Positions 4,449 through 43,096 of a stretch of 43,096 nucleotides of DNA are shown one piece after another. Every line of letters starts with the position of its first letter. Within the stretch, counting starts at the first letter, position 1. A program made the position numbers and the translations under genes. The notes under the pieces were generated by a model. It was not told the DNA's origin and ran no database searches. It worked only from the letters and a program-made list of their open reading frames with translations. The stretch is from Bacilli bacterium (GTDB taxonomy: Bacteria > Bacillota_I > Bacilli_A > RFN20 > CAG-826), in assembly GCA_044341785.1 (NCBI GenBank), contig JBIIRB010000003.1, forward strand, positions 1-43,096, read 5' to 3'.

Positions 4449-4449
4449 T

Positions 4450-19309: not shown

Positions 19310-19311
19310 CC

Positions 19312-20295: not shown

Positions 20296-20306
20296 GGAGG
20301 CCGACC

Positions 20307-21650: not shown

Positions 21651-21662
21651 AAAGGAGACATT

Positions 21663-24190: not shown

Positions 24191-24215
24191 CTAATCATGA
24201 ATGAAAGGAATTCAT

Positions 24216-25507: not shown

Positions 25508-25902
25508 CGATGTTATTCCTTGTCACGTTCATTAGCTTAATGACCTTTAGTTTCATGCAAGTCAGTCGCATGGTGAGACGTGTTGATCTTACTTTATATG
25601 GTTTAGTACCCAGTGTTTTTGAGGCCGCTGTGGATTTAGGACATTGGATTGAAACGAATGAATTCGTTTTTGATTCCATTGAATTAGTAACGTCAATTGA
25701 ACGCCATCTGGTTGCAAGTTTATCAGACTTACCTATCACCTATTCAATCTCACTCGACTATCACCATTATGATTCAAAAATCCCTTGTGAGTCACTTTGT
25801 GATGCTGTTATTTTCCAATTTGAAGGGAACATCTTCAATCAATGGCCATTATTAAGGTCCTTTGAAGTTTACATCATCGATTATGAAAACAACGTCAATT
25901 AA
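25504..25902 (+). CDS. Hypothetical single-TM protein, possible minor pilin
   Basis: N-terminal TM helix, CESLC pair; ATG 25504 overlaps the upstream TGA. Confidence 0.6.
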   Translation: MTMLFLVTFISLMTFSFMQVSRMVRRVDLTLYGLVPSVFEAAVDLGHWIETNEFVFDSIELVTSIERHLVASLSDLPITYSISLDYHHYDSKIPCESLCDAVIFQFEGNIFNQWPLLRSFEVYIIDYENNVN

Positions 25903-26812
25903 ACAATATCTAGAATCTTCTTTTTTAAGACCGTTGCTTTCCCAAGAAGATATAACCGATGTTTCCTTTAATGGAACTCATATTTTTTATCAAAGTAGTC
26001 GCTGGGGAAGAAAACTGAGTGACCTTATCATTGAAGAAAAATCGATCTACGACATGATGATGCAACTTGCTAATTTAAGTGATCAGCATTTCACGCATAC
26101 CCAGCCCGTGCTCGATTTAGCCGTAGAAGGTTATCGTATTCACGCTGTAGGACCTTCCATCAGTCGCTATGGTTTTCAAAAAGTGACGACGTTTTCGTTG
26201 AGGATTAGTCGCACCCGACAACTAAAAAATCATTACCCACCATCCTTACTCGCATGCGTGGATGAGTTAATCAAATTAAGACAGTCCATCCTCATTTTTG
26301 GAGAGACAGGGTCAGGAAAAACCGAATTTCAAAAAGCAATCTTAACCTCTTTTCCACTCCACGCTCGGGTCGTTGTGGTGGATAATGTGCTTGAACTTGA
26401 TGGACTCATTTCACAAAAAAAATTAGACATGAATGTATGGCAAGCCCAACCGCATGTGTCGGTTTCCGCGCTCATTGAAAGTGCATTACGATCCAATCCG
26501 GATTGGTTGATACTTGCAGAAGCCAGAGGAAAAGAAATGATGGATGTTTTAAATGCGTCATTAACGGGTCATCCTGTCATTACCACGTTGCACGCGCGTG
26601 ACATTGAAACCCTTCTCCCTCGCATCACACGGATGGTGATGATGAATGGCAATCACATTGGTTACCAAGAAACGTTAGAGGATATCGAACGGGCATTTCC
26701 TTTTTCCATCCATGTTGTCAAAGGCATGAATGAGGACGGTTCCATCGCTCGTTCCATCCAAGGAGTATACGAACGAAAAAATAAACAATGGATTCAAAGG
26801 TATGGAACTTAA
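25883..26812 (+). CDS. CpaF/TadA (VirB11-like) secretion ATPase
   Basis: DITDVSFNG, Walker A GETGSGKT, ALRSNPDWLILAEARGKE, His box TGHPVITTLHA. Confidence 0.85.
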   Translation: MKTTSIKQYLESSFLRPLLSQEDITDVSFNGTHIFYQSSRWGRKLSDLIIEEKSIYDMMMQLANLSDQHFTHTQPVLDLAVEGYRIHAVGPSISRYGFQKVTTFSLRISRTRQLKNHYPPSLLACVDELIKLRQSILIFGETGSGKTEFQKAILTSFPLHARVVVVDNVLELDGLISQKKLDMNVWQAQPHVSVSALIESALRSNPDWLILAEARGKEMMDVLNASLTGHPVITTLHARDIETLLPRITRMVMMNGNHIGYQETLEDIERAFPFSIHVVKGMNEDGSIARSIQGVYERKNKQWIQRYGT

Positions 26813-27512
26813 ATCAAAACTTCAATCCGGTTTATATGCTTTGATTGCAACCGCAGTGGTCACTTTTTTATGGTGGTGGATGGTGAGCGACATTCTGGGT
26901 GTGATTTCACTCAGCCTCTTCACTTTTCCATTGCTGTTTTATGGTTTTCAAGTCCAACGGCGATTCATCCATCGTGATCAATTAAGAAGTTTATCTTTTT
27001 ACTTTATGAATCAATTCATTCTCACTTTAAGTGTCAAAACGTCCATCGCTTCAACCTTAAGTGAACTCTATCCTTCGCTTCACCCGCGCATCCAACGCGC
27101 GCTTGATGAAGATGAAGGACTGCCAGCGATGGATACGCTTAAACGGCTAGAAGTGATTTTTGATTTTCCGTTATATGCCATCTTCATCCATATGATTGAT
27201 ATTCATGTTCACTATGGCGGATCCATCATTGATATGACGGATATGTTGCTTTCACGCGCCAGGCGAGAAGAAATTGAATGGAATGAAAAACGCATGTACA
27301 TCAAAAAAAAGTGGGGTCAATTTTTCTTGCTTTGGCTGCTGAACTTAATCATACTTTTTTTTGTGCGATTTGGATTGTCCGAAGTATTTAAAGACGTTTT
27401 CCCCACCGTCATCTTTAAAGGTTTATTAGCCTTTTTCTTTTTGATCTTTGTTTTTTCATTGCTACTTTTTTTTGAAAAAGCTTACGGAGGAAAAATTCGT
27501 GTTAGCGAATGA
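26802..27512 (+). CDS. TadB-like (T2SSF-type) membrane platform protein
   Basis: 2 TM, soluble helical domain with YGGSIID, then 2 TM; directly after the CpaF gene. Confidence 0.6.
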   Translation: MELKSKLQSGLYALIATAVVTFLWWWMVSDILGVISLSLFTFPLLFYGFQVQRRFIHRDQLRSLSFYFMNQFILTLSVKTSIASTLSELYPSLHPRIQRALDEDEGLPAMDTLKRLEVIFDFPLYAIFIHMIDIHVHYGGSIIDMTDMLLSRARREEIEWNEKRMYIKKKWGQFFLLWLLNLIILFFVRFGLSEVFKDVFPTVIFKGLLAFFFLIFVFSLLLFFEKAYGGKIRVSE

Positions 27513-28158
27513 ATGGCGTGGTCATCCTTCCTTTCAAATGTTAAAAAAACAGTTTTATGGCTTGGTTGGTATTGCATTCATCTTCACCATCACAGGCGTT
27601 TATTTTGGCTATGGGTTGTGGAGCGCGATGGGTTTTGTGATGGCGTTGGTCCTCCTTTGGTTATGGTTTGATGTTGAACAAGAAAAACGCAAACATCAAA
27701 TTGCTCAACAACGAAAAATTGCCATGATGGAAACGATGGCCTATGTGAAAATATTTCTGTTTAGTGGTTTGACGGTTTATCAATCCTTGAAGCAATCCCA
27801 AGTGCATGCGTCTGCTTGGATGCGCGCTCGTTTAGAAGCCATGCTCATCAAGATGGATGAAGATAAAAGTTTTCGTCCGTTTTATGATTTAGCACGACCT
27901 TTAAACACCTTGGCCATGGAACAATTGATGATTGCGCTTTATCAAATTACTCAAACCGGGATCACGAGTGTTTATTTATCCCATTTCTTTTATGTTTTTG
28001 ATCAACTTGAAGGAAGTATCAGTCGCTTATCGTTTACCCAATTTGAAGAAGAACTAGAAGGTCACCATACGTGGGCCATGATTGGAACCTCCATCATCAC
28101 TTTAACGATTTTATATAGCATCATTACTCTCATTCAAGGATTTATCCATGGCTTATAA
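27499..28158 (+). CDS. TadC-like membrane platform protein
   Basis: 2 TM, LFSGLTVYQSL (T2SSF-like), C-terminal TM; GTG start after GGAGG. Confidence 0.6.
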   Translation: MLANEWRGHPSFQMLKKQFYGLVGIAFIFTITGVYFGYGLWSAMGFVMALVLLWLWFDVEQEKRKHQIAQQRKIAMMETMAYVKIFLFSGLTVYQSLKQSQVHASAWMRARLEAMLIKMDEDKSFRPFYDLARPLNTLAMEQLMIALYQITQTGITSVYLSHFFYVFDQLEGSISRLSFTQFEEELEGHHTWAMIGTSIITLTILYSIITLIQGFIHGL

Positions 28159-28486
28159 AACGTCATTTATTTTATCGCTCATCTTTGTGATTCAACTCCT
28201 ACTCTTAATTGGAGATTTACTGATGATTCAAGTGGCGCACGCACGGTTGGATGCGATTGGCCTTGCCGCGAGTGCCTTAATCTCTAGACAAGGTGGAATT
28301 AATGAAGAGATTGTGTCATTTACAGAACAGCAATCGACCACCTTGACCTGTCTTTCGATGTGTAGTCCACGGCTTGGTGATGTCCTGACTTTTCGATTAG
28401 AAAAAACGATCGATCCCTTCATCATCAGTGAAGATACGATCCAACTCAGTGTCATCTACCATGCGGTGATTGGCTTTTATGCTTAG
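28148..28486 (+). CDS. TadE-like / minor pilin-like protein
   Basis: N-terminal hydrophobic helix followed by GDL..IQ...LD.......ISRQGG; CLSMC pair. Confidence 0.5.
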   Translation: MAYKTSFILSLIFVIQLLLLIGDLLMIQVAHARLDAIGLAASALISRQGGINEEIVSFTEQQSTTLTCLSMCSPRLGDVLTFRLEKTIDPFIISEDTIQLSVIYHAVIGFYA

Positions 28487-29510: not shown

Positions 29511-30023
29511 ATGAAAACCATCGCAATTTTAGTGGCCGATTTTTATGATGATTTAGAACTTTATTATCCTTTCTATCGTTTGCAAGAAGAAGGTTGGAAT
29601 GTGCATCTCATTGGTGCCATCAAACAACAAGGGTATAAGAGTAAACACGGGATGATCGCGACGAGTGAATTTGCTGCTCATGAGGTTCAACCTTCATCCT
29701 ATGATGGCTTGATCATTCCTGGAGGTTTTTCGCCTGACTACATGAGACGTTCAAAAGAGATGGTGGCGTTTGCAAAAGGGTTTGCCCAACTCAAACGTCC
29801 TATCGCTGCGATTTGCCATGGTCCGTGGTTAATGGCCTCCGTGTGTGATTTAAAAGGACGAAAATTAACAAGCTTTTATTCGATTCAAGATGATCTAGTG
29901 CATGCTGGAGCTATCTATGTGGATGCGCCTGTGGTCATTGATGGCAATTACGTCACATCACGAACACCCAAAGACTTGCCAGTTTTCGTGAAAGCTTTTA
30001 TTGGTTTAGTCAAAGGTTCTTAA
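29511..30023 (+). CDS. PfpI/DJ-1 family protein (type 1 glutamine amidotransferase-like)
   Basis: DLELYYP, IPGG, AICHGP, VTSRTPKDLP. Confidence 0.92.
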   Translation: MKTIAILVADFYDDLELYYPFYRLQEEGWNVHLIGAIKQQGYKSKHGMIATSEFAAHEVQPSSYDGLIIPGGFSPDYMRRSKEMVAFAKGFAQLKRPIAAICHGPWLMASVCDLKGRKLTSFYSIQDDLVHAGAIYVDAPVVIDGNYVTSRTPKDLPVFVKAFIGLVKGS

Positions 30024-31378
30024 GCAAAAATAAATCGTTGATCGTCAATCATCCGTAACGGATAATTTTTTCCTAAATGGCATGCGTATAAATCTTGTTC
30101 AAGCGGATTCATTAACCAGGGTTGATAAATCAAAGGAACAGGTAGATGGTTTAATTCCGGACACCAGCGTTTGACATAATCCCCTTGGGGATCATATTTT
30201 TTAAACTGTAAGGTTACATTAAAGACACGATTTTCTCGTGGGTCTGCTCCGACACCGGCTAAATATTGCCAATTCCCTAGATTACTCGTTGCGTCATAAT
30301 CCAGTAAGGCGTTTCGAAAGTAAGCTTCACCCCACGCCCACGGCAAGCCTAGCCCATGCACGAAAAAAGAAGCAACATTCTGTCGTCCTCGATTCGACAT
30401 CCAACCCGTTTGTTTGAGTTCGCGCATCGCGGCGTCCACGAGGGGGAAACCCGTTTCTCCTTCGATCCATCGGTGCATCTTGTTGTCATTCCAATTCACG
30501 TTGATTGAAGTATTCATCGGCGTTGCATGCAGTAAAAAGTAAAAATAATCTCGCCATAAAAGTTCAAACCAAATCCAATATGTGGAATCATTGGCACCAT
30601 ATTTTTTTTCAGCATCTTTTAAGGCATGGTAAATCGTTCTTGCACTGACATTGCCCCAAGCTAAGTAAGGCGAAAATCGTGTTGAGTCTTGAAAGTGCAG
30701 CATCCCATTGCGTGTTTTTTTATACGTTAAAGCAAGTTTTCGAACATGAAAATAATCATGGATATGGTTTAAAGCGGCAGTTTCTCCCATCGGTTGAACG
30801 AGTGTTGTCCTGTCAGTGAGTAATGTATTCAAGCGTTCCCAATGAGGATCAAACTCAATCTTGCAAGGAAGCGGTTGCGGTTTTTCCAACGGTGAAGACA
30901 CACGAATGTTATTTTCGACTTGCATACGAAAGTTGGTGTACGTCGCAGGTAAGTTTGCCAGTTGAAAAGGTAAATCGGTTAACGCTAGAAGAGTTGGATG
31001 GTCAAACACATGCAGCATTAAATTCGGAAAATGATTGTTTAATGCATTGATAAACAACGGATTCCATCTTGATGAGCGATAAAAACTGATTGAGGTTAGT
31101 GCATATTGAAGTGCAAACTTGTTGATGACGTCAATCGCATGACCTTGCTCTAAGGTTAAAGCGATATTCAGCGTCTGAAGTTGCAGCGATAAATCTTGTA
31201 AACTTTCAAAAAGAGCTTGCCGCTTAAACGATGCGGATTGGCGGTTAAGATGCTCTTCAGGAATGACATAAAGCGCTAACACAGCACTTTCGTGTTCTTG
31301 AGGAACAGCCCACCCCATATGGTCTAAGATTCGAAAATCTTTATCCAATAAAACGATGCGTAAACGGGGTTTATCCAT
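30020..31378 (-). CDS. CRY-DASH-like cryptochrome/photolyase
   Basis: YKKTRNG, STRFSPYLAWG, FELLWRDYF, TGWMSNRGRQNVASF, DYDATSNLGNWQYLAGVGADPRENRVFN. Confidence 0.85.
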   Translation of the reverse strand: MDKPRLRIVLLDKDFRILDHMGWAVPQEHESAVLALYVIPEEHLNRQSASFKRQALFESLQDLSLQLQTLNIALTLEQGHAIDVINKFALQYALTSISFYRSSRWNPLFINALNNHFPNLMLHVFDHPTLLALTDLPFQLANLPATYTNFRMQVENNIRVSSPLEKPQPLPCKIEFDPHWERLNTLLTDRTTLVQPMGETAALNHIHDYFHVRKLALTYKKTRNGMLHFQDSTRFSPYLAWGNVSARTIYHALKDAEKKYGANDSTYWIWFELLWRDYFYFLLHATPMNTSINVNWNDNKMHRWIEGETGFPLVDAAMRELKQTGWMSNRGRQNVASFFVHGLGLPWAWGEAYFRNALLDYDATSNLGNWQYLAGVGADPRENRVFNVTLQFKKYDPQGDYVKRWCPELNHLPVPLIYQPWLMNPLEQDLYACHLGKNYPLRMIDDQRFIFA

Positions 31379-32849
31379 GGCGTTTTATCATCACTTTCGC
31401 TTCTTCGCGGATACGGTTTTGATCAGACTTTTTCATTTTTTCCCAAAGTCGCACCATCATCCCCATGCGCGGATTTTGTTTTAATGGGGTTTGATGACGT
31501 GATATAAAATCCCAATATAAAATGTTAAACGGACAAGCTTTTTCACCTTGTTTGATTTCGACTTTGAATGTGCATGTGTCACAATAATTAGACATTTTAT
31601 GGATATAAGCGCCGGAAGCAATATACGGTTTGGTTGACATGGTTCCACCATCCGCGTAGAGTCCCATGCCCATGACATTTGGTGCGACAATCCATTCCAT
31701 GGAATCGATGTACATTTCATTGAACCAACGTTGCAAGGCAGCGGGTTCAACGCCAAGTAAATTAGCCGCATTGCTAAGCACCATTAATCGTTGGATGTGA
31801 TGATTATAACCGTATTGAATGGTTTCATGGATGGTGACTCGTAAACAATTGAGGTCGGTTTTACCATCGTAATAAAAGGAAGGTAATGGATGGTGATGTT
31901 GAAAATAATTGTTTTTTAAATAATCCTTTGACGACTGTAAATAAACACCACGAACATACTCGCGCCAGCCTAAGATTTGCCGGATGAAACCTTCCACAGC
32001 AGGTAACGGGAGTTGTTTTTGATGGTAAGCTTTTTCGGCTTTTTGAATCACTTCTAAAGGAGTCAACAACCCTAGATTGATAGAAGAAGAAAGCATGGAA
32101 TGGGACATCCAAGGTAAGCCGTCATGCATGGCATCCTGATACCGTCCAAAGGTCGCTAACCGATAATCGACAAAATGCTCAAGGGCTTCAATTGCTTGTT
32201 TTCTTGTCACCGGATAAGGCATGGTTTCCAGTAATCCTGGATGGTGAGGAAAACGATGTTTGACTTCTGCGATGATTGTTTGGGTGAGTTGATCTTCTTG
32301 AAACGTTAAGGCTGGAAAAATTTCTGGCTTTTCATCAATCCCTTGACGATTGTCACCATCGTAAGAATACTGACCTCCGATGGGTTTGTCACCGTCCATG
32401 AGAATATGAAATTTTTTTCTGAATTGACGATACAAGGGATCTAATTTCCATGTTTTGCCAATAGGCAATAACGTTTTCCAATTAGCAGGATTGATTAAAA
32501 ATAAAGGATCGTCCAATAAGGTGACGTTCTGAATCTCATCGATCCAGTCTTGTTCATAACGATTCGTGGGTTTAAAGATGATGATCTGATCATTAGAAAA
32601 TGTGGTGAAAGCTTCTTGAAGGGAATGAGCTTGAATCCATTGGGTTTGGTAACCTTGACGCTTGATATGGTCATGAAAATGGCGATAAGCAGATAAATGG
32701 AGTGCGATACGTTGCAGATGAAACCGATAGTACGTCCACTGATCATCCGAATCAATGAATAAAACAATATCGTGCTGACGATCGATACCACTTTGTTTTA
32801 AATAAAGATCATGAAGTTGATGTGAAAATAAAAAAAGGATTTTACGCAT
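31371..32849 (-). CDS. FeS-BCP cryptochrome / bacterial (6-4) photolyase
   Basis: FGRYQDAM, EGFIRQILGWREYV, HHIQRLMV, KPYIASGAYI; four Cys in LNCL, YCDTC and ACPF. Confidence 0.9.
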   Translation of the reverse strand: MRKILFLFSHQLHDLYLKQSGIDRQHDIVLFIDSDDQWTYYRFHLQRIALHLSAYRHFHDHIKRQGYQTQWIQAHSLQEAFTTFSNDQIIIFKPTNRYEQDWIDEIQNVTLLDDPLFLINPANWKTLLPIGKTWKLDPLYRQFRKKFHILMDGDKPIGGQYSYDGDNRQGIDEKPEIFPALTFQEDQLTQTIIAEVKHRFPHHPGLLETMPYPVTRKQAIEALEHFVDYRLATFGRYQDAMHDGLPWMSHSMLSSSINLGLLTPLEVIQKAEKAYHQKQLPLPAVEGFIRQILGWREYVRGVYLQSSKDYLKNNYFQHHHPLPSFYYDGKTDLNCLRVTIHETIQYGYNHHIQRLMVLSNAANLLGVEPAALQRWFNEMYIDSMEWIVAPNVMGMGLYADGGTMSTKPYIASGAYIHKMSNYCDTCTFKVEIKQGEKACPFNILYWDFISRHQTPLKQNPRMGMMVRLWEKMKKSDQNRIREEAKVMIKRHG

Positions 32850-32931
32850 AGTTCTATTTTACTTGATAACTCTTAAAAAAAACTTAATCGTGATTTAACC
32901 TTTTTTCTTTGTGAAGATTTATAATTATTTT

Positions 32932-33981
32932 ATGACGGATGTTCAATCAGATTGTATTCATCTCGCATCGTTAGGATTAGGAAAAGTTTTTGATCGTCCT
33001 TTGGTTGGCGTGATTGCCAAGGGCAAAGAAAACAAGTCATGGTATGAAGGGGATACCCTTTCTTTTTCATTATGGATTCAAACTTTACCAACATCATTGG
33101 ACTCGTTATTTTTCTCCTATGAAATTGATTTAGCTTTACTACAAAAAACGTCTTTTGCTTCATCCGTATCGTTTACTTTTTATTCGCCCCATGCAACAGT
33201 TCCTGGCCAGACGGTTGCGTGGTTAAAACGCCAAGGCCATCACGTTACTTTAATTGAAAATCCATTAGCGATCGAACTTAATCATGTGGTGTATGCTACA
33301 CAAAGGAACGATATTCCATTTATTGCTCAAAGTTTTGGTATGTCACTCGATGGTAAAATTGCAACGTATACGGGAGATTCAAAATATATTTCTGGTCCGG
33401 AAGTGTTACAAGCAATTCATCGGTTACGGCATCGATATCAAGCCATCATGGTCGGCATATCTACCGTGTTACTCGATCATCCCAAATTAACCACGCGCCT
33501 TCGTGACATACAAGGGCATTCACCGATTCGAATTATCTTGGATACGCATCTGCGCATCGCTTTAGACGAACCCCTTTTGTCCATCCAAGAAGGAGCCACT
33601 TGGATCGTCACGTCCATCGATGTGAATGAAAGCAAAATGCATGCAATCAAAAGTAAAGGTGCTAAAATTATACAAGTTCCGTTAAAAGGCGATCATCTTG
33701 ATCTAGCGCTCGTTTTAAAAACCATCAAACTTCATGGGATTCATTCAGTCCTCGTGGAAGGTGGAGCAACGTTGCATGGTTCATTTCTCGATCAAGGATT
33801 CTCGCATCGCGTGTATGCTTCGATCTCTCCACTATTCATTGGAGGCAAAGAAGCCAAATCCCCAATCGCCGGTCAAGGATTTAAAACTCTTAGCGAAAGT
33901 TTAAAACTTGCCTTTATCAATATCGAAACGTTCGGTGAAGATATCTTACTCACCGCAACGATCAAAGGAAAGAAAACATGA
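32932..33981 (+). CDS. ribD: RibD-derived protein: degenerate deaminase domain plus intact pyrimidine reductase domain
   Basis: SLDGKIAT, HRLR...IMVGISTVLLDHPKLTTR, VEGG present; HAE and PC...C Zn motifs absent; ATG 32932 preferred over GTG 32911. Confidence 0.85.
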   Translation: MTDVQSDCIHLASLGLGKVFDRPLVGVIAKGKENKSWYEGDTLSFSLWIQTLPTSLDSLFFSYEIDLALLQKTSFASSVSFTFYSPHATVPGQTVAWLKRQGHHVTLIENPLAIELNHVVYATQRNDIPFIAQSFGMSLDGKIATYTGDSKYISGPEVLQAIHRLRHRYQAIMVGISTVLLDHPKLTTRLRDIQGHSPIRIILDTHLRIALDEPLLSIQEGATWIVTSIDVNESKMHAIKSKGAKIIQVPLKGDHLDLALVLKTIKLHGIHSVLVEGGATLHGSFLDQGFSHRVYASISPLFIGGKEAKSPIAGQGFKTLSESLKLAFINIETFGEDILLTATIKGKKT

Positions 33982-35198
33982 TTAACAAACTAACCATTGA
34001 ACAGACGTTAGGCAAGCTCAAAAAAGGCGAAGCGGTGATTCTTGTCGATGATGAAAAACATGATGCTCATGTTCATGTTTTTCAAATCGCACAATATGCT
34101 TTTGAGCATCAAACGCTAGCCACGCTTCACGATATTCCTGGTGCAACCACCCTTGTCTTAGGTTATGAAAAATTTGGTGTGATCACCCATTCACAAAAAA
34201 ACGCTGCTTTTGAATACGATGAACCGGTGGCAACGATTGGTTCACTCAACGCGGGATTATCGTTAACGCTTCCCTTTTTTACGAAGACGATTGAAACGTT
34301 AATTAATCCGAAAGCAGATGATCGCCACTTTCGAACCGATGTAGGATATCAAACCCTTCCTGTTCGCCTTGGTGGAGCATTAAAACGTGCTGCTGCGGCT
34401 GAAGCGACCATGGATATTGCGACCATTTTAAAAGCCGAACCTGTGGCCATCATGGTGCCAAAGTTAGATCCCAAAGGTCGAATCTTGATGTTTAAAAATC
34501 TTTTAGAGGATAAGCAAACCTATGACATTTTTAGTATTTCGGATTTGATTGCCTATCGCTTGAAGTTTGAAGTTCACATCGAAAAAATTGCTGAAGCGAA
34601 AATGCCAACGAAGTTTGGCGAATTTAAAATGATTGGTTTTGTGAATAAACTCAATGGCGAACATCACGTTGCCTTAGTCAAAGGTAACGTGTCCACCCAA
34701 GAACCCGTCCTCTTACGCGTTCACTCGGAATGTTTAACGGGTGATTCGTTTGGTTCGCTGCGATGCGATTGCGGTAATCAATTACATACCGCCTTGAAAC
34801 GGATTGAAAAACAAGGCCGAGGCATCCTGCTTTATATGCGACAAGAAGGTCGCGGTATTGGTTTGATTAATAAAATTCGTGCTTATGCGCTTCAAGATAA
34901 AGGGATGGACACGGTGGAAGCCAATCTCGCATTAGGTTTCCCTGATGATTTGCGCGATTATGGGACCGGGGCTCAAATTCTTCAATCACTCGGTGTGACC
35001 AAACTTGAAGTGATGACGAATAATCCTTTAAAAATTCGCGGTTTAAGCGGCTTTGGTATTGAGATTGTGAAGCGACAACCGATCCAACCTAATCATAACG
35101 AACGTAGTGATCGTTACATGCAAGTGAAAAAAGATAAAATGGGTCATATCCTCAATTTAAAAAAGAATCCTAAACCTAAATCAAAATCTAAAGCCTAA
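33978..35198 (+). CDS. ribBA: RibBA-derived protein: degenerate DHBP synthase domain plus intact GTP cyclohydrolase II
   Basis: RVHSECLTGD...RCDCG, QEGRGIGL, RDY, TNNP intact; RibB catalytic motifs replaced. Confidence 0.9.
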   Translation: MINKLTIEQTLGKLKKGEAVILVDDEKHDAHVHVFQIAQYAFEHQTLATLHDIPGATTLVLGYEKFGVITHSQKNAAFEYDEPVATIGSLNAGLSLTLPFFTKTIETLINPKADDRHFRTDVGYQTLPVRLGGALKRAAAAEATMDIATILKAEPVAIMVPKLDPKGRILMFKNLLEDKQTYDIFSISDLIAYRLKFEVHIEKIAEAKMPTKFGEFKMIGFVNKLNGEHHVALVKGNVSTQEPVLLRVHSECLTGDSFGSLRCDCGNQLHTALKRIEKQGRGILLYMRQEGRGIGLINKIRAYALQDKGMDTVEANLALGFPDDLRDYGTGAQILQSLGVTKLEVMTNNPLKIRGLSGFGIEIVKRQPIQPNHNERSDRYMQVKKDKMGHILNLKKNPKPKSKSKA

Positions 35199-35947: not shown

Positions 35948-36025
35948 GCGATTTATTTGGATTTCATCTATATTTTTGATTTTAATCGGTTTATACTTTT
36001 CTTGTACTTAAAGGAAGGGCTGTGC

Positions 36026-37348
36026 ATGAATATTTTTAGTAGCCTCGTGCCTGTTAAGTTAGATGGGCATAAAACCCTGACCTCCCATGACGCGGTTAAA
36101 GTTGTTTCTAACCATGCGATACAACAAGTTTTTATTTCCATTGTTGCCCCTAATGGAGTGGAAATTGAATTGTTTGTCAAAGAAGGCGATGCGGTTCAAG
36201 TAGGGACAATCTTGGGTCGAAGAAAAGATATGTATGTGCCTTTTTTCTCGTCCGTTTCAGGAAAAATTACCGCGAAGGTCAATCTTTATAATCCCGTGAT
36301 TGGTCGAGCGACGGCGCATTTACAAATTGATAATGATTTTTTAAACACCCCGGCCAAACCGTTAACGATTTATTCTTTTGAATCCTCAGCGGATGATTTA
36401 ATTCAAGGTATTAAAGAGGCTGGCATTACGGGTTTAGGTGGCGCAGGCTTTCCAACGTATATCAAATATGAAGGCGCAAAAGGAAAACCCGTTGATTTTG
36501 TCATCATCAATGGGGTGGAATGTGAACCGTATTTATCCACGGATTATCATGCCGCCCAAATGTATGCTCTCGACGTCATGCAAGGGGCTGAACTGCTACG
36601 ATTAGCGGCGCACGCTAAGTATGCTTTAATCGCCTTCAAGAACACCAAGATGGCTATTAAAGACGCCTTAACGCCATTTCTAGATCGCTTTCCCCACGTA
36701 AAAATCAAAACCGTTCCTGATGCGTATCCCATGGGTTGGGAAACCACGTTAGTCAAACAGTTAACGGGCCGTACTTTTCAAAAATTACCCATTGAAGCTA
36801 AATGCATTGTGAACAATATTACAACCACCATGCATGTGGCACGGGCGTTGCTGCAAGGCAAACCGATTCTTGAACGCATTGTGACGGTTTCTGGCGAAGG
36901 CATTAAACATCCTGCGAATGTGAAAGCACCGCTAGGAACGCTCATGTCTAAACTCGTTGAAGATCTCGGTGGCTATGGCCTTGATGAAGCAACCGCATTT
37001 TTAGGTGGTCCGATGAGTGCAAAAGCCATCGTGGATGATAAGTTTGCTTTGCAACCTCATTTTGGCGCTTACACCGTATTAGCCCCCCAAGAAAATAGTG
37101 AAGAACCTTGCTTACGATGTGGAGCATGTACGGCGGCGTGCCCAGCATTTTTACAACCGATTGAAATTAAAAATGCCTTAGACAGCGACAACACCGCACG
37201 CTTACTAAAACTCGATGCGATGAAATGTGTCGAGTGTGGGATTTGTTCCTATGTTTGTCCTTCAAAAATTGAAGTCACCGAAGCGGTTAGAAAATCAAAA
37301 GTCAAAGTGCGCATCGCGATGGCCAAAGCCGCGATGATCAAAAAGTGA
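36026..37348 (+). CDS. rnfC: Rnf complex subunit C
   Basis: GITGLGGAGFPT, NGVECEPYL, GGPM, CLRCGACTAACP and CVECGICSYVCP; ATG 36026 after AAGGAAGG, TATACT at 35992. Confidence 0.92.
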   Translation: MNIFSSLVPVKLDGHKTLTSHDAVKVVSNHAIQQVFISIVAPNGVEIELFVKEGDAVQVGTILGRRKDMYVPFFSSVSGKITAKVNLYNPVIGRATAHLQIDNDFLNTPAKPLTIYSFESSADDLIQGIKEAGITGLGGAGFPTYIKYEGAKGKPVDFVIINGVECEPYLSTDYHAAQMYALDVMQGAELLRLAAHAKYALIAFKNTKMAIKDALTPFLDRFPHVKIKTVPDAYPMGWETTLVKQLTGRTFQKLPIEAKCIVNNITTTMHVARALLQGKPILERIVTVSGEGIKHPANVKAPLGTLMSKLVEDLGGYGLDEATAFLGGPMSAKAIVDDKFALQPHFGAYTVLAPQENSEEPCLRCGACTAACPAFLQPIEIKNALDSDNTARLLKLDAMKCVECGICSYVCPSKIEVTEAVRKSKVKVRIAMAKAAMIKK

Positions 37349-37358
37349 GAACGCGCGG

Positions 37359-39206
37359 ATGAAATTTATTAACACCCCAGGACCCTTCCTAAGAGATAAA
37401 CAAGCGAGTGTCAAACGCGACATGTTGGCTTACACGCTCGCGTTAAGTGTGGTTTGGATTTTTGCGATGGTTTATCAAGGGCTCGTTTTAGGACCTCGTT
37501 ATGCATTAGCCATTTTCATGATCATGCTGATTGCGCATGTCACGACATTACTCGCTGATATTTTAGTCGCGTTGTTACGCTATCAACCCTCGATGGGATC
37601 TCTCGGCAAACACGTGTTTCATGTTATTGGTGGCAATTATTCTTATGTGACGGCTACCTTGTTTGCCTTAATTATTCCTGTCGGCACACCGATGTATGCT
37701 GTGATTACCGGTGCATTATTTTCAACGTTACTGGTCAAATACGCGTTTGGTGGTTTTGGGGCCAATATTTTTAACCCTGCTATCTTTGGACGATTATTTG
37801 TAAGTATGGCCTTTGGATCATTACCCACCTTTCTACCGGGCGATACCTTCGCGTCGATTCCAACGTTAACCGAAACGGGTGCCACGATTACGTCGGCGTT
37901 AAACGCCCAAGGCTGGTTAGTGGATTCGCTGGAAGGGATGAATGTCAGTTTAAACAATTTGTTACTTGGGTTTTATTCGGGTGCGATTGGAGAAACGCCG
38001 ACCCTTTTAATTCTAGTGTTAGGTGCGATTTTAACTATTAAAAATGTTCATAATTGGCGTCCTACGGTGTTTTTCTATTCAACAATAATATTAACCACCC
38101 TCATCATGGGTTCGTTAGGTGGCGTCGATCCTTGGATGTTTTCGCTGATCTTTTTTTCCTCAGGATCAATCGCGTTTGGGGGTTCATTCATGCTAACGGA
38201 TCCTGTTACCTCACCCACGTCTAATTTTGGAAAATCACTCATCGGTGTCATCGCTGGATTTTTAGTGGTGTTAATTCGTTTTCAAACTCCTAACCCAGAA
38301 GCGGTTGCTTATGCAATTGCTCTCGTGAATATCATTTCACCGTCGATTGATCGACTCGCTACGGGACTCATTAATCAAAATCTCTTAGGTAAATGGGGCG
38401 TGATTGGTGCGACTGCGTTAGCCTCGTTTGGCATCAACGGATCATTAGTCTTGGCGAGTCTTGATGCTAGTGAATCAAGTTCGGTTTCAAGCAGTTCATC
38501 AGCCTCAGAATCAAGTTCAGAACCGGTCACCTACTTTAAAACATTCACAGGAACGGCAACGAACGGCAATTGTGCCAATGATGATGAAAATTGCACGGAT
38601 GCGGTTTACCATGACGATACGATTGTCGTTGATATCCACGTGAATGAATCCTATCAAATTCAAGCCATTGATGTGACGGGAACTGTCACCACCTCCGGTT
38701 ATTGGCGAACACAATGGAACAACCAAATTGTTGGGCTCCTTGAAGCCTATGGTGCCCTAAGCATTCAAGGCATTCAACAATTGGATGCGTTAGCCTTACC
38801 TTCCGAACTCAATATTTTGAATGTGACTAATTCTTCCATTCGCCTTGCCACGGCTCTCCAAGATGCCCTCCAAGATGTCGAGGTGAATGAAGGTCAATTT
38901 ACGTCCATCATTCCTGACCACCCTGAGTTGGGTGAATACACGATGAACGTTTTGGTTTATGTTGAGGATGGCACGATTGCAGCCATTGATCTAGCCTTAG
39001 ATGGCCAAGTGAGTGATCATCAACCGTACATCGACACGTGGGTGGCAGGATACGAGGACTTAGTGAACGCTTATCAAGGTTATGATGTGCAATCTTTCTT
39101 AGCGCTTGTAGAGATGCCTAATGATTTCACCACGGTCGGAGTCACGGTCAGTAGTTCGCGTTTATTTCAAGCCATTCAACACGCCCTTGCAGGTTATGGA
39201 GGTTAA
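37359..39206 (+). CDS. rnfD: Rnf subunit D fused to a Ser-rich linker and two FMN-binding-like domains
   Basis: FGGFGANIFNPA, TGAT, GAIGET, FMLTDPVTSP; roughly 250-aa C-terminal extension. Confidence 0.88.
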   Translation: MKFINTPGPFLRDKQASVKRDMLAYTLALSVVWIFAMVYQGLVLGPRYALAIFMIMLIAHVTTLLADILVALLRYQPSMGSLGKHVFHVIGGNYSYVTATLFALIIPVGTPMYAVITGALFSTLLVKYAFGGFGANIFNPAIFGRLFVSMAFGSLPTFLPGDTFASIPTLTETGATITSALNAQGWLVDSLEGMNVSLNNLLLGFYSGAIGETPTLLILVLGAILTIKNVHNWRPTVFFYSTIILTTLIMGSLGGVDPWMFSLIFFSSGSIAFGGSFMLTDPVTSPTSNFGKSLIGVIAGFLVVLIRFQTPNPEAVAYAIALVNIISPSIDRLATGLINQNLLGKWGVIGATALASFGINGSLVLASLDASESSSVSSSSSASESSSEPVTYFKTFTGTATNGNCANDDENCTDAVYHDDTIVVDIHVNESYQIQAIDVTGTVTTSGYWRTQWNNQIVGLLEAYGALSIQGIQQLDALALPSELNILNVTNSSIRLATALQDALQDVEVNEGQFTSIIPDHPELGEYTMNVLVYVEDGTIAAIDLALDGQVSDHQPYIDTWVAGYEDLVNAYQGYDVQSFLALVEMPNDFTTVGVTVSSSRLFQAIQHALAGYGG

Positions 39207-39208
39207 GT

Positions 39209-39841
39209 ATGAATGACCCTATTCAATTAAATCCCAAACTACCTGAAGTGAATGCGACAAAGAAAACGATTCATTTAACGACGTTTTTAGGAGGCATTTG
39301 TTTACTTGCCACGGCAGCGTTAGCCTCAGTCAATGCATGGACGGCACCGATCATCGCTCAACGAGAAGAGGACACACGTCAAGCAGGGTATTTAGCGTTA
39401 CTCGATTTAGAATCAAGCTCGGGATACAACATTGATCAAACGGAAGCCATTAGTTCATCACTATCGACGGTTGGGGTGACAAAGATGACCATTTTTTATG
39501 AAGAAAATACCGTCAATGTTTTTGGTTTGATTTACGATGTCAGCACAACGGGATGGGAAGCAGGTTTAAATTTCCAAGTCGGTTTCAAAGCAGGTTTATA
39601 TTCTGGTTTTAATAATGTATCCAATGGAGAAACTCCCAATATTGGTCGCATTTTTATCAACGATTTTGATGCAATCTTAACCGGATTATCTGCCGATGAT
39701 ATTAGCGTGGTGAATGATGCCGTCAATGCTTATTTAACTTCACGAACGTTATCGTTAACGTTTGCCAATGTCACGCGTGAGGTTATTGTGGATGCCTTAG
39801 AGGTCATGGCCCAAGATTATTTAGGGAGGATTGCTTCATGA
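39209..39841 (+). CDS. rnfG: Divergent Rnf subunit G
   Basis: FLGGIC...LASVNAWTAPII N-terminus, GW..G, ETPNIG; position in rnfCDGEA order; no TGAT motif. Confidence 0.75.
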   Translation: MNDPIQLNPKLPEVNATKKTIHLTTFLGGICLLATAALASVNAWTAPIIAQREEDTRQAGYLALLDLESSSGYNIDQTEAISSSLSTVGVTKMTIFYEENTVNVFGLIYDVSTTGWEAGLNFQVGFKAGLYSGFNNVSNGETPNIGRIFINDFDAILTGLSADDISVVNDAVNAYLTSRTLSLTFANVTREVIVDALEVMAQDYLGRIAS

Positions 39842-40470
39842 AAAGTTCCAAATTGAAACTTGTGTTTCAATCCGCCATTACCAATAACACGACTTTTTCA
39901 ATGATGTTAGGTTTATGTTCCGTGCTTGCTTCATCCAATTCATTATCGACCTCGGTCGGTATGGGTGTGGCCGTTATCATCGTCATCATGATCACCAACA
40001 TGCTCGTAAGTGCCGTTCGTAAAATTACTCCTGATGAAATTCGCATACCCGTATATATTGTTTTAATTGCATCCGTGGTGACCATCATCCAAATGCTCAT
40101 GCAAGCGTTTACGCCTCAATTAGCCATGAGTCTAGGTGTTTATTTACCGCTCATCGTCGTGAACTGCATCATTATGGCGCGTGCTGAAGTATTTGCTTCT
40201 CGCAATGGCGTATTGGATTCTTTATTCGATGGACTTGGAACCGGTTTAGGTTATTTTTTGTCGATTATTGTGATCTCGCTGGTGCGTGAAATCATAGGGA
40301 CTGGAATCTTACAATTCGTCGAACCCTTTGGTAACACAGAACTTTTCAATGTGCGGATTATCCCCCAAGAATTTGCCTTATCCATTCTGGTAACACCGAC
40401 AGGCGCTTTCATCACGATAGGATTACTCCTTGCCCTCGTCAATGCGATTGCCAAACGAAAGGATGGATAA
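39838..40470 (+). CDS. rnfE: Rnf subunit E
   Basis: LGLCSVLA, IRIPVYI, PLIVVNCII..RAE, REIIG. Confidence 0.94.
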   Translation: MKSSKLKLVFQSAITNNTTFSMMLGLCSVLASSNSLSTSVGMGVAVIIVIMITNMLVSAVRKITPDEIRIPVYIVLIASVVTIIQMLMQAFTPQLAMSLGVYLPLIVVNCIIMARAEVFASRNGVLDSLFDGLGTGLGYFLSIIVISLVREIIGTGILQFVEPFGNTELFNVRIIPQEFALSILVTPTGAFITIGLLLALVNAIAKRKDG

Positions 40471-40473
40471 ACC

Positions 40474-41049
40474 ATGGAATTATTAGGTCTTGCGATTTCG
40501 GCAATCTTTGTTTCCAATATCGCTTTAGTTCGCTTCTTAGGTATTTGTCCGTTTCTGGGTGTTTCCAAAAATACCGAGAACGCGATTGGAATGGCTTTTG
40601 CTGCTGTGTTTGTGATTTTCTTTGCCTCCATCATCTCTTACACGGTGCATTACCTGGTTTTAGAACCTTTAAACTTGGCTTATCTTGATTTATTAGCGTT
40701 TATATTAATCATTGCCGCATTCGTTCAATTTGTCGAAATGTTCATGAAGAAGTTCCTGGTTGGTTTATACAAATCGTTAGGCATTTATTTACCGTTGATC
40801 ACGACGAATTGTGTGGTCTTGGGTGTTGCATTAGAAAACATCACCATGCAACTCGACTTTTGGGAAATGCTCGTGTATTCCTTGGCAGTTTCGGTTGGAT
40901 TTGCTATGATTTTAGTGGTCTTCTCCGTGATTCGTGAACGGCTTGCCGCGCTCAACCGCATTCCTAAACCGTTCCGCGGTTCTGCAATTGCGTTCATCAT
41001 CACCGGATTGATGGCTATGGCCTTTATGGGCTTTGGAGGATTAGTATAA
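40474..41049 (+). CDS. rnfA: Rnf subunit A
   Basis: FLGICPFLGVS, LGIYLPLITTNC, IRER, MAFMGF. Confidence 0.95.
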   Translation: MELLGLAISAIFVSNIALVRFLGICPFLGVSKNTENAIGMAFAAVFVIFFASIISYTVHYLVLEPLNLAYLDLLAFILIIAAFVQFVEMFMKKFLVGLYKSLGIYLPLITTNCVVLGVALENITMQLDFWEMLVYSLAVSVGFAMILVVFSVIRERLAALNRIPKPFRGSAIAFIITGLMAMAFMGFGGLV

Positions 41050-41051
41050 AT

Positions 41052-41261
41052 ATGGATTTATCATCATTACCTGAATGGTTACGCTTAACGCTTGGTTTTG
41101 GCTTAATCGGAATTTTACTTGCCTTTTTTACATGGGCCACAGTGACCAATGCTAAAACAGAAAAACCTGATAATTGTAAAACGGTGGATTCCGGATGCTG
41201 TGGCAATACCGGTGCATGTAGCTGGGATAGTAAATTAAACGCAGTCAGTAAAGGAAAATAA
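41052..41261 (+). CDS. Small single-TM protein with a 4-Cys tail
   Basis: Fills the gap between rnfA and rnfB; GGAGG upstream; CKTVDSGCCGNTGAC. Confidence 0.7.
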   Translation: MDLSSLPEWLRLTLGFGLIGILLAFFTWATVTNAKTEKPDNCKTVDSGCCGNTGACSWDSKLNAVSKGK

Positions 41262-41266
41262 TATCG

Positions 41267-41581
41267 ATGGAAATCATCCACGCAGTGATGGTGATGATGC
41301 TTCTAGGGGCAACGCTTGGTTTAGTCTTAGGCGTATCATCAAAGCTGTTGATGGTCCACATCGATTCGCGTGAAGAAACATTGGAAGCGATGCTACCTGG
41401 TTTAGATTGTGGTGCGTGTGGTCACCCTGGTTGTAAAGGGATGACGCTAGCCCTCTTATCAGGAAAAGAATTCAAAGTTTCTGTATGTAAACCATCGAAA
41501 CTTGAACAACGACTGTCCATCCAAAAATATTTAGCAGAACATCCCGGACCTGACGGTAAAACGCTTCACGTTGAGGCGTAG
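41267..41581 (+). CDS. rnfB: Truncated RnfB (TM anchor and first Fe-S domain only)
   Basis: LPGLDCGACGHPGC...VCKP; 104 aa; no ferredoxin-type motifs. Confidence 0.8.
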   Translation: MEIIHAVMVMMLLGATLGLVLGVSSKLLMVHIDSREETLEAMLPGLDCGACGHPGCKGMTLALLSGKEFKVSVCKPSKLEQRLSIQKYLAEHPGPDGKTLHVEA

Positions 41582-41592
41582 GTGTTGAGATT

Positions 41593-41967
41593 GTGATGAG
41601 ACCCTTTTCACTTCATAAAACTTCTTTTGACGTTTATGCCTTTGCTATTTTAATTATCTTTACTTCACTCATCGTCGTGTGGACGAATGTCTATAATCGT
41701 CCGTTAGGTGCGCTTTACGCGAATGTGTACATTGAGACTGAACAAGTTGAATCCTTATCGCTATCCGTGGATCAAGAAGTGACGTTTTTTCAAGAGGATT
41801 ATCCAGTGTTATTAGGCGACATCACCCTTGAAATCATGTCACGTCGTGTCCGCATCAAAGAAGAAGTTTCACCACTTCATTATTGTTCACTGCAAGGTTG
41901 GATTGATCAACCAGGTTTACCCATCGTCTGTGCGCCTAATCAATTTTTAGTGGTCATCGAGGCCTAG
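41593..41967 (+). CDS. NusG domain II-containing exported protein
   Basis: N-terminal TM; SPLHYCSLQGWIDQPGLPIVCAPN. Confidence 0.8.
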   Translation: MMRPFSLHKTSFDVYAFAILIIFTSLIVVWTNVYNRPLGALYANVYIETEQVESLSLSVDQEVTFFQEDYPVLLGDITLEIMSRRVRIKEEVSPLHYCSLQGWIDQPGLPIVCAPNQFLVVIEA

Positions 41968-41968
41968 C

Positions 41969-42487
41969 ATGAATCGTCAACGCATTCTTCAATTAACACG
42001 GTTATCCGTCCTCCTTGCCATGGGGGTCATCCTCAATTACATTGAAACCTTTTTTATTCCGACGGCTTTTATTGCTCCTGGTATTAAACTTGGCTTAGCC
42101 AACGGCGTCGGATTAATTGTGCTATATTATTTTGGCGATACCGAGTTTTTAACGATTGGTGTTTTACGCGTCATCTTATCGGGTTTATTCACCGGATTTG
42201 GTTTTGCTTTTTTAATTGGGTTAAGTGGTTTTTTTGTCAGTGCATTGATGGTGATCATCGCTAAATATTTTCACTTATTTTCCATTTTTGGTTTATCGAT
42301 GATCGCGGCGGTTTTTCATGGGTTTGGTCAAATCTTGATGGTAACCTATTTATATGAATCCATTTATATGTTGAACTATTTACCCATTCTCATGGTGACC
42401 GGTCTCATCGCAGGTTTATTCATCGCTTGGATTGCCAAAGAAGTTTTAGAACGGTTGCGACTCTCTAGTCGATTACTTGAGGAATGA
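41969..42487 (+). CDS. Gx transporter / heptaprenyl-PP synthase component I family membrane protein
   Basis: PGIKLGLAN, LRV, S..G.S...AVFH..GQ. Confidence 0.82.
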   Translation: MNRQRILQLTRLSVLLAMGVILNYIETFFIPTAFIAPGIKLGLANGVGLIVLYYFGDTEFLTIGVLRVILSGLFTGFGFAFLIGLSGFFVSALMVIIAKYFHLFSIFGLSMIAAVFHGFGQILMVTYLYESIYMLNYLPILMVTGLIAGLFIAWIAKEVLERLRLSSRLLEE

Positions 42488-42489
42488 GT

Positions 42490-43096
42490 ATGAAAACCTG
42501 GATGCAGATGCTTTATAAAATTTTAAAACCACAAGAATGGTTGATCGTGCTGGTGTCTTTACTCATCTCAGGAATGATTGTCTCCTCGGTGATTGGGTTG
42601 CCGAGTGCTTCCATCTCCGAAACGTTAGCGTATGAACATATCGGTTATGCGATTCGCATTGAAACGACCACACAAAAAAAAGTGACACCTTTTTATACGA
42701 TTTTCCAAGTGGTTTATGAAAAGCAACGTCCCAAAGTTGAAATCGATCGGGTGAAAACGATTGTTGAAACGATGATTCCTACCTTGCACCAATTGGCGGA
42801 TCGTCACCATGATTTTTATGCAGATGAAACTAAAACAACCTTGGTCAATAACATCAAGCGGGTGAATGAAACGCTCGCGACTGGTGAACCGATTACCATT
42901 GATTTTCATTTATATGAAATGCTACGGGTAGGTATCGAAATGGGGAAACTCACCCAAGGACAATTTAATATGTTCATCGGAGAACTTTCGGCGTTTTGGG
43001 ATGACCTGATTGATGATCCTGATTATGGGCTTAACGTGCAATCATGGGACCCTTTTTATAATGAAGATGCGCAAGCAGACCTCAATCATTACTTAA
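42490..43096 (+). CDS. apbE: FAD:protein FMN transferase ApbE (3'-truncated by window; not in ORF track)
   Basis: Open frame to the window end; N-terminal TM; NNIKRVN...GEPITIDFHLYEML...TQGQFNMFIGELSAFW; rnf/NusG-II context. Confidence 0.75.
   Translation, partial: MKTWMQMLYKILKPQEWLIVLVSLLISGMIVSSVIGLPSASISETLAYEHIGYAIRIETTTQKKVTPFYTIFQVVYEKQRPKVEIDRVKTIVETMIPTLHQLADRHHDFYADETKTTLVNNIKRVNETLATGEPITIDFHLYEMLRVGIEMGKLTQGQFNMFIGELSAFWDDLIDDPDYGLNVQSWDPFYNEDAQADLNHYL

Follow-up and report, generated by a model that had tools for sequence, protein, structure and literature searches.

Characterised Rnf complexes, such as those in Protein Data Bank (PDB) entries 7zc6, 9eri and 8ahx, provide the reference for the gene cluster described here, which occupies positions 36026-43096 of a 43,096-nucleotide (nt) stretch of DNA (contig JBIIRB010000003.1 of the Bacilli bacterium assembly GCA_044341785.1; this whole stretch is hereafter called the window). 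The cluster shares with the canonical complexes the six subunits, the RnfC motifs, the T-G-A-T motif of RnfD, the RnfG fold, and the Cys ligands of RnfA/E and of the RnfB shuttle domain. It differs from them in an extra RnfD helix followed by two FMN_bind-fold domains predicted to lie outside the cell, in a microprotein gene between rnfA and rnfB, in an RnfB that lacks the C-terminal domain, and in an RnfG motif that reads A-N-V-T. We favour, at roughly even confidence, a conserved and lineage-specific branched Rnf, i.e., a complex that keeps the full canonical loop and has gained an outward branch for electrons.

Where Rnf clusters encode a multi-flavinylated RnfG, the extra flavin domains have been proposed to open a second route to acceptors outside the cytosol (Meheust et al., 2021; PMC8238504), and the branched reading, as the simplest account of the present observations, would extend that proposal. 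The idea is the same, but here the extra domains are carried by RnfD via a new helix and RnfG has a single domain; multi-domain RnfG of the type described by Meheust et al. does occur in relatives (620-625 amino acids (aa) in loci L032 and L035, and 337 aa in L027). In NQR/RNF-like systems NqrB/RnfD is fused to an NqrF-type NAD-binding domain (PMC8238504; PMC10979944), which gives a pared-down RnfD path linking NAD(P)H with an FMN domain on the outside, comparable to the rnfB-less sister operons discussed below. In contrast, only PF03116 and no PF00175 was found in the RnfD of the window, RnfC is the NADH module, and RnfD keeps the flavinylation Thr that the NQR/RNF-like subunit has lost. Flavin-based extracellular electron transfer in Listeria (EetB, FmnA, FmnB/ApbE, PplA, Ndh2 and demethylmenaquinone) resembles the present system in having ApbE, a gene of the EetB family, and a surface lipoprotein, which here bears a flavinylation-type motif. 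The membrane step in Listeria is carried out by Ndh2 and demethylmenaquinone, whereas here it would be Rnf, and the lipoprotein here is not recognisable by sequence as PplA or FMN_bind. The Methanosarcina Rnf with its multihaem cytochrome MmcA (PMC12174285; PMC8238504) is likewise an Rnf given an extra outward conduit, but the conduit here would consist of flavins fused to RnfD, not haems. Neither a tandem FMN_bind fusion on RnfD nor a one-cluster RnfB was found in the literature searched (the large supplementary table of PMC8238504 was not covered).

The ten genes of the region are co-directional on the + strand and tightly packed as one operon, with all six Rnf subunits in the usual C-D-G-E-A-B order. 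Pfam and NCBIfam searches bore out the inventory given by an earlier annotation from sequence alone (the sequence-only reading): an extended RnfD, a short RnfB, a Cys-rich microprotein, and NusG-II, Gx transporter and ApbE genes. The most unusual product is RnfD (37359-39206, +, 615 aa), in which the PF03116 match is confined to residues 7-333 (E 7e-54). Its core (residues 1-335; 37359-38363, +) carries the canonical flavinylation site T-G-A-T at T176 (nt 37884-37886), which is invariant in 9/9 close relatives. Beyond the core there is a hydrophobic peak at residues 348-366, then a Ser-rich stretch and a further ∼230 residues. We delimited an extra hydrophobic helix (∼345-368), conserved in relatives, together with a Ser-rich tether (∼369-388; 38391-38522, +, for the two), FMN_bind-fold domain 1 (residues 390-505; 38526-38873, +) with candidate T490 in N-V-T (nt 38826-38828), and FMN_bind-fold domain 2 (residues 506-615; 38874-39206, +) with candidate T596 in G-V-T (nt 39144-39146).

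The tail is rare: an HMMER scan of 1.84 billion representative proteins returned 21 clusters at E<=1e-3, mostly RnfD proteins of ∼600 aa. Seven of these 21 distant tail relatives (P0014, P0016, P0019, P0022, P0024, P0026, and P0029) matched the FMN_bind family PF04205 at E<=0.01, five of them above the 22-bit cut-off. AlphaFold2 (AF2) modelling of the tail used an alignment of 25 rows, comprising 13 of the 14 loci fetched from related genomes (the near-duplicate L029 was left out) and 11 of 33 database relatives (P0001-P0033; the remaining ones were left out). The model reached a mean predicted local distance difference test (pLDDT) score of 90.7 and a predicted template-modelling score of 0.86, and shows two units with the same order of strands and helices. 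In an exhaustive VIA search, domain 2 aligned over 89/89 residues with 8p2a_A, a crystallised ApbE-substrate FMN domain (Z 9.3, root-mean-square deviation (rmsd) 2.2), followed by the RnfG chains 7zc6_G (Z 8.6, rmsd 2.3 over 93 residues) and 8ahx_G (Z 7.5) and by NqrC (4xhf_A, Z 7.4). IscU-type folds came close behind with Z 7.6, so the FMN_bind fold alone is not specific. A Foldseek search with the two-domain model gave nothing at E<=0.001; IscU-like folds were at the top and 8p2a at rank 30. By hhalign the two domains are homologous (99.8%, E 6e-28), and the N-V-T of domain 1 falls on the G-V-T of domain 2. At the flavinylation position of domain 2, Thr or Ser is present in 15/15 orthologues and the Gly in 14/15; in domain 1, Thr or Ser is present in 10/15. 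The two extra FMN-binding-like domains of the sequence-only reading are thus upheld by the PF04205 matches of relatives, the AF2 fold, VIA and hhalign, and so is its statement that the NADH side has gained flavin-type domains, on which a Thr is conserved at the flavinylation position; we infer their placement at the cell surface. The C-terminal 10 residues of RnfD are described as cytoplasmic in the complex of Clostridium tetanomorphum (PMC9588780). With a cytoplasmic C-terminus in the canonical RnfD and one added helix, the tail should be outside, where ApbE works. The tail is fast-evolving: identity is 28% even between members of the same genus.

Further variation was seen in RnfD of other genomes. 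In L031 (G197) and L033 (G177), RnfD is 738-763 aa long, with an insert of ∼130 residues that separates the added helix from the two FMN-type domains; the whole RnfD of L033 weakly matches RnfG (E 3e-6) and may contain a third flavin-type domain. L043 (G007, another family of the order) encodes a 647-aa RnfD and a 316-aa two-part RnfG, unmatched by the tail of the window, which may represent an independent extension of the same subunits.

Of the 301 genomes sampled from the order, 19 (the source genome included) gave a match to the tail, as did 16/164 of the family and 9/65 genera; two of the 19 are weak matches in short frames from other families. All 14 fetched loci encode RnfC, a tailed RnfD (604-763 aa), RnfG, RnfE, RnfA, the microprotein, and the NusG_II and PF07456 proteins. 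A short RnfB (104-123 aa) was present in 13/14, and ApbE also in 13/14, the remaining locus being cut by a contig end. Since the same gene order recurs in 14/14 related loci, the operon is not a chance arrangement. A search for further loci with a three-row alignment added one locus on a genome contig and two on metagenome contigs. In a quick RnfD tree the tailed proteins group together as a single clade (18 rows, support 99 in the Shimodaira-Hasegawa-like approximate likelihood-ratio test, SH-aLRT). Genes for peroxiredoxin (AhpC/TSA-type) or thioredoxin-reductase-like proteins stand beside the operon in the flanks of L027, L030, L002, and L049.

The sequence-only reading had proposed that the ferredoxin arm (RnfB and RnfG) is eroded in this genome. 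RnfE (39838-40470, +, 210 aa; PF02508 E 3e-56, NF009070 E 3e-68) keeps the predicted 2Fe-2S ligands C27 and C110, and RnfA (40474-41049, +, 191 aa; TIGR01943 E 3e-68) keeps C25 and C113. These four Cys are retained in 22 of 23 rows (the window and 21/22 loci), with L026 the only one there to lack them. RnfE and RnfA are as conserved in the window as in other genera (E 1e-54 to 1e-81). RnfB (41267-41581, +, 104 aa) consists of a membrane helix and a single-cluster FeS domain (C48, C51, C56, and C74; PF04060 alone, residues 43-76, E 6e-9). It matches TIGR01944 at model positions 3-89 of 190 and ends after the FeS domain, without the C-terminal polyferredoxin (ferredoxin-accepting) domain. The retained part corresponds to a flexible one-cluster shuttle domain, and the missing part to the ferredoxin-accepting domain, which has 2-7 clusters in characterised complexes as described in PMC12174285. 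All four RnfB Cys are kept in 22/22 sequences.

A short RnfB is widespread in the order. PF04060 was found in 208/301 genomes, most of the listed matches in frames of ∼100-150 aa, and RnfB was short (94-124 aa) in all eight tail-less Rnf operons that were read. RnfD is 354-397 aa in seven of these eight, and a canonical G-A-T RnfG was readable in five (L040, L044, L045, L046, and L047). RnfG of L043 reads G-T-S, and no RnfG open reading frame (ORF) was found in L041 and L042 in the gap as delimited. The microprotein (41052-41261, +, 69 aa, one hydrophobic helix and 4 Cys) lies between rnfA and rnfB in 14/14 extension loci and in the 8/8 other Rnf loci, three of the latter detected by phmmer and five by reading the rnfA-rnfB gap. 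Because the short RnfB and the microprotein are normal throughout the order, beside an ordinary RnfD and RnfG, they are not part of a specific rewiring, as the sequence-only reading had supposed. An alignment of the microprotein shows a helix and then a Cys motif with three to four conserved Cys. PF12669 (FeoB-associated Cys-rich) gave a weak match in 14/22 orthologues (best E 8e-4) and none in the microprotein of the window at E<=1, which points weakly to a distant FeoB-associated-type protein. A role like that of NqrM was not borne out: no PF04400/NqrM is among the listed families, and the likeness would be an analogy only.

RnfG (39209-39841, +, 210 aa) has a membrane anchor and a divergent FMN_bind fold, with A-N-V-T at T189 (nt 39773-39775). 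TIGR01947 matched at E 1e-6, with 29 bits against a cut-off of 102, and phmmer aligned the protein end-to-end with A. woodii RnfG (9eri_G, E 0.09), placing T189 in the region of the flavinylated Thr. An AF2 model from 15 rows (the three long RnfGs, L029, and four of the eight loci without the extension were left out) gave a single domain with pLDDT 89, and its best Foldseek matches were RnfG chains (9eri_G, E 1.3e-5; 8rb9_G; 7zc6_G), then NqrC. Thr occupies this column in 12/12 short RnfG orthologues; most read [STA]-G-x-T, and the closest relatives A-N-V-T or A-S-V-T. RnfG is divergent, not gutted. The claim that it lacks TGAT is literally correct, but the Thr is still aligned and the RnfG fold is modelled. 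From these conserved residues (4 RnfA/E Cys, 4 RnfB Cys, and RnfG T189) the ferredoxin arm in this genome is to be read as slimmed but intact. Together with a gene for PFOR (see below), the conserved ligands contradict a dead ferredoxin arm here.

Loss of that arm was observed in sister operons. In G256 (same genus, 92% complete; locus L026) the operon has no rnfB, no PF04060 or PFOR match was found anywhere in the genome, and all four RnfA/E Cys are lost, with RnfE and RnfA matching at E 1e-16 and 5e-32. G256 keeps RnfC (E 6e-178), a tailed RnfD, an RnfG with T-G-A-T, and the microprotein, NusG_II, PF07456, and ApbE genes. In L002 and the metagenome locus L049, the operon ends after rnfA with convergent genes next to it and no rnfB; the second RnfA Cys is lost, and the extended RnfD and RnfG are kept. 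RnfC is a fragment in L002, and L049 begins inside rnfD, so that rnfC is not visible there. The quick RnfD tree groups these loci as (L026, (window, (L002, L049))) with support 99 and 100, and with this grouping the losses of rnfB and Cys need two changes. As these are few events among close kin, the sister losses illustrate more than they prove. With RnfC, tailed RnfD and RnfG kept without the other arm, an NADH-to-outside half can apparently stand alone.

Downstream of rnfB lie genes for flavin trafficking. They encode a membrane-anchored NusG_II-domain protein (41593-41967, +, 124 aa; PF07009 E 5e-16, hydrophobic segment 11-29), an EetB-type ECF-S protein, i.e., the Gx transporter (41969-42487, +; PF07456 E 3e-31), and ApbE, of which the N-terminal 204 codons with a membrane anchor are present before the window ends (42484-43096, +; PF02424 E 1.6e-5). 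Contig C76 of the same genome, read in reverse, overlaps the ApbE of the window by identical residues and completes apbE (C76:2836-3648, reverse strand; PF02424 E 2.6e-24). PF07456 corresponds to the EetB family, whose member in Listeria is the subunit that exports FAD for ApbE, and NusG_II/PF07456/ApbE genes after rnf form a known flavin-trafficking module that stands beside Rnf in 572 Clostridia genomes (PMC9973259). By analogy, the PF07456 protein of the window is a probable FAD exporter feeding ApbE. The NusG_II protein travels with the PF07456 gene and apbE and was present in 14/14 loci.

Directly after apbE there is a gene for a 276-aa lipoprotein (C76:1898-2728), with a lipobox, a Ser-rich linker resembling that of RnfD, and T-G-V-T near the C-terminus. 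The motif Thr is invariant in 20/20 aligned sequences; 17 read [ST]-G-A-T, and the others T-G-V-T (its own), T-T-A-T, and T-S-A-T. In other genera, a different two-repeat lipoprotein of 330-383 aa with D-G-A-T-type motifs follows apbE (9/14 loci and L050). Six distant homologues of the lipoprotein had no Pfam match at E<=0.1, and a PDB sequence search was also empty. The flavin status of the lipoprotein is a lead only, suggested by its motif and position. A predicted complex of the RnfD tail with lipoprotein residues 44-276 scored 0.01 against a mark of 0.32, which counts neither way. Val replaces the Ala that prevails in relatives at four predicted flavinylation sites (those of both tail units, RnfG, and the lipoprotein), and at two of these Asn also stands in place of Gly, while the RnfD core stays T-G-A-T; the Val at four sites may reflect the specificity of, or co-evolution with, the organism's own ApbE. 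After the lipoprotein gene, C76:1-3648 (locus L048) carries YqeY-like and NUDIX-like genes, arranged as they are in G256. Two distant members of the lipoprotein family have source names in Acholeplasmataceae, one of them called 'Major membrane immunogen, membrane-anchored lipoprotein'.

On the NADH side, RnfC (36026-37348, +, 440 aa; the ATG is at 36026, and a TTG at 35957 is also open) matches Complex1_51K (E 8e-35), RnfC_N, SLBB, Fer4_7, and TIGR01945 (E 1e-89), and has an NADH/FMN domain and two CxxCxxCxxxC (4Fe-4S) motifs. Pyruvate dehydrogenase E1a/E1b/E2/E3 genes, noted also in the sequence-only reading, are present at 18218-23036, and a lipoate ligase gene adjoins. For the other arm, a PFOR gene was found on contig C50 (1839-2960, +), of which 374 codons precede the contig end; the remainder, with the ferredoxin-type domain, is outside the assembly. 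PFOR was detected in 14/15 tail-bearing genomes tested, with G256 the sole miss. [FeFe] hydrogenase was found in 2/5 genomes and flavodoxin_1 in 2/5, neither in the source genome; PF00258 flavodoxin was not found in the source genome, G256, or G197. The check for ferredoxin and PFOR genes suggested by the sequence-only reading thus turned up PFOR but no small ferredoxin, and a separate polyferredoxin that could complete RnfB, also raised there, was not found in the source genome, where the sole CxxCxxCxxxC ORF and the sole Fer4_7 match are RnfC. In G197, a relative assembled in a single contig, the other Fer4_7 matches are PFOR, an FrhB/FdhB-like protein and two glycyl-radical activases, with no small ferredoxin. 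It is a matter of speculation that PFOR docks directly onto the one-cluster RnfB.

In the branched Rnf that we favour, a canonical loop would run from a low-potential donor to the [4Fe-4S] cluster of the minimal RnfB, and on through the [2Fe-2S] cluster of RnfA/E, FMN-RnfG and FMN-RnfD to RnfC and NAD(H). The 11th helix would carry the normally cytoplasmic C-terminus of RnfD across the membrane, and the two FMN_bind-fold domains would be held at the cell surface by the Ser-rich tether. With FAD delivered by the EetB-type exporter, ApbE could attach FMN to T490, T596, RnfG T189, RnfD T176, and the lipoprotein Thr. From the extracytosolic flavins, electrons might pass to the tethered flavins and the lipoprotein and finally to an external acceptor. 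The source of the branch electrons could be NADH via RnfC/RnfD, or PFOR-derived carriers via RnfB/RnfAE/RnfG. The gene content, the folds, the retained ligands and Thr positions, the persistence of the operon in relatives and the missing RnfB arm of the sisters are observations; the topology, the flavinylation, the direction in which electrons flow and an acceptor as such are proposed.

A number of observations weigh against such an outward branch. At E<=0.1, the window's own RnfD tail gave no match to Pfam FMN_bind (PF04205), and its RnfG matched no Pfam family, PF04205 included. The tail motifs L-N-V-T (T490) and V-G-V-T (T596) are non-canonical with respect to D-x-x-[ST]-G-A-[ST], as is A-N-V-T of RnfG, where canonical RnfG has [ST]GA[ST], and the Gly-to-Asn change may matter as well. 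In favour of the branch, on the other hand, Ala-to-Val and Gly-to-Ala changes are reported to leave ∼50% flavinylation in a test substrate (PMC12052999, a review citing Bertsova 2019). The domain 1 Thr is gone in 5/15 orthologues. Neither lipoprotein type has a Pfam match at E<=1, and the lipoprotein is only weakly tied to FMN_bind (hhalign <=38% vs. the tail domains and RnfG; the Atlas FMN_bind cluster at rank 8, 0.85). The RnfD tree comes from a quick search only, and the source genome (G000) is incomplete (944 kb assembled, 84% complete). No terminal acceptor or extracytosolic reductase was found in it: PF04205 matched NqrC only, and the matches to PF00890 (fumarate-reductase-type acceptor) were confined to N-terminal Rossmann/nucleotide-binding stretches. 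Finally, every ligand of the normal ferredoxin:NAD+ loop is present, so ordinary Rnf function is compatible with the sequence. The complex would then be an ordinary ion-translocating ferredoxin:NAD+ oxidoreductase, with the fused FMN domains as internal stepping stones or a reservoir among RnfA/E, RnfG, and RnfD, and no electrons leaving the cell. We consider this unlikely, but it carries real weight: besides the retained ligands and the missing acceptor gene, PFOR is encoded here and in 14/15 tail-bearing genomes tested, and in G197, with PFOR and no [FeFe] hydrogenase or flavodoxin_1 found, Rnf is the obvious sink for PFOR electrons. However, RnfG is kept everywhere, so no substitute shuttle is needed; a relay leading away from the complex would suit the long flexible Ser-rich tether and the lipoprotein encoded in the same operon with its flavinylation motif; and the sister operons retain the tail after loss of rnfB and the RnfA/E Cys.

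The other explanations appear less probable. It is improbable that, as the sequence-only reading had it, the ferredoxin arm (RnfB and RnfG) is already defunct here and the complex is a one-way NADH-to-outside oxidoreductase. RnfB does lack the ferredoxin-accepting domain, the RnfG motif is degenerate, RnfC is the only CxxCxxCxxxC ORF in the assembled 944 kb, and the sister G256 is truly in that state. Yet the Cys of RnfB and RnfA/E and T189 of RnfG are conserved, PFOR is present, a short RnfB accompanies normal RnfD and RnfG throughout the order, and RnfE/RnfA are conserved as in other genera, unlike those of G256. The surface domains might instead be flavin-free, structural or adhesive descendants of FMN_bind with no redox role. 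The persistence of Thr/Ser in domain 2 (15/15; Gly 14/15) and the constant fusion of the tail to a redox subunit, always near apbE and the FAD exporter gene, make this doubtful to a similar degree, in spite of the non-canonical motifs, the missing FMN_bind match of the window tail, the loss of the domain 1 Thr in 5/15, and a tail only 28% identical within the genus. We regard as very improbable a branch that runs inward (from external shuttles to NAD+) or to O2 (a protective NADH oxidase at the surface). Rnf is described as reversible (PMC12174285), peroxiredoxin- and thioredoxin-reductase-type genes flank the operon in several relatives, and the window's two photolyase-type genes hint at a habitat exposed to light and for that reason often oxic; but this is gene neighbourhood alone, nothing links those genes functionally, and such a branch would be a variant of the favoured explanation rather than a separate architecture.

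If the surface domains carry flavin and pass on electrons, then relatives of acholeplasmas with tiny genomes could unload electrons from NADH and ferredoxin to the exterior (the acholeplasma kinship is taken from the source names of homologues). In that case Rnf alone would suffice, without the quinones and cytochromes of other extracellular electron transfer systems. A bolder and only tentative version, which we think rather less than probable, is an Rnf midway in its conversion to a quinone-free and cytochrome-free respiratory exit: a three-terminal hub for NADH, PFOR electrons and the exterior, with electrons that come in by way of the minimal RnfB and RnfA/E going out over the tethered surface flavins, with extracellular transfer thereby coupled to the ion pump, and with two neighbouring lineages independently reduced to an NADH-to-outside half-Rnf by loss of the ferredoxin arm. 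The related operons form a natural series from a full Rnf with normal RnfD, through a full Rnf with tailed RnfD (the window), to a tailed Rnf without rnfB and the RnfA/E cluster ligands, and offer material with which to tell apart the roles of the two Rnf halves. The minimal RnfB found across the order raises the question of what docks onto a one-cluster RnfB, given PFOR and no small ferredoxin found in the relatives examined.

The profile check proposed with the sequence-only reading (FMN_bind and Fer4) gave the PF04205 matches in 7/21 tail relatives described above and Fer4_7 in RnfC alone in the source genome. The only PF04205 match of that genome, NqrC, belongs to a second Rnf/Nqr-type operon (C55:24281-28265, - strand, locus L001) with the order NqrB-C-D-E-F and no NqrA. 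A homologue of this NqrC is present in G256; four further genomes that carry the tail gave none with this query. The rnf operon is immediately preceded by riboflavin genes (32911-35198, +). They encode RibD, in which only the C-terminal reductase domain was recognised, and RibBA; the same RibD/RibBA pair precedes rnfC in G256. Next to them are the two photolyase-type genes (30020-32849, -), one matching DNA_photolyase/FAD_binding_7 and the other a DPRP photolyase-related protein, which is unusual for a genome of ∼1 Mb. A glycan-use cluster at 654-9869 (+) encodes a glucoamylase-like protein, an alpha-amylase, a LacI regulator, a GH3 protein, and a 1094-aa SOGP/GH94-type phosphorylase. Between these regions, at 24201-28486 (+), a run of ORFs mostly without Pfam matches surrounds a T2SSE-type ATPase (25862-26812) and is possibly a competence or pilus-like system.

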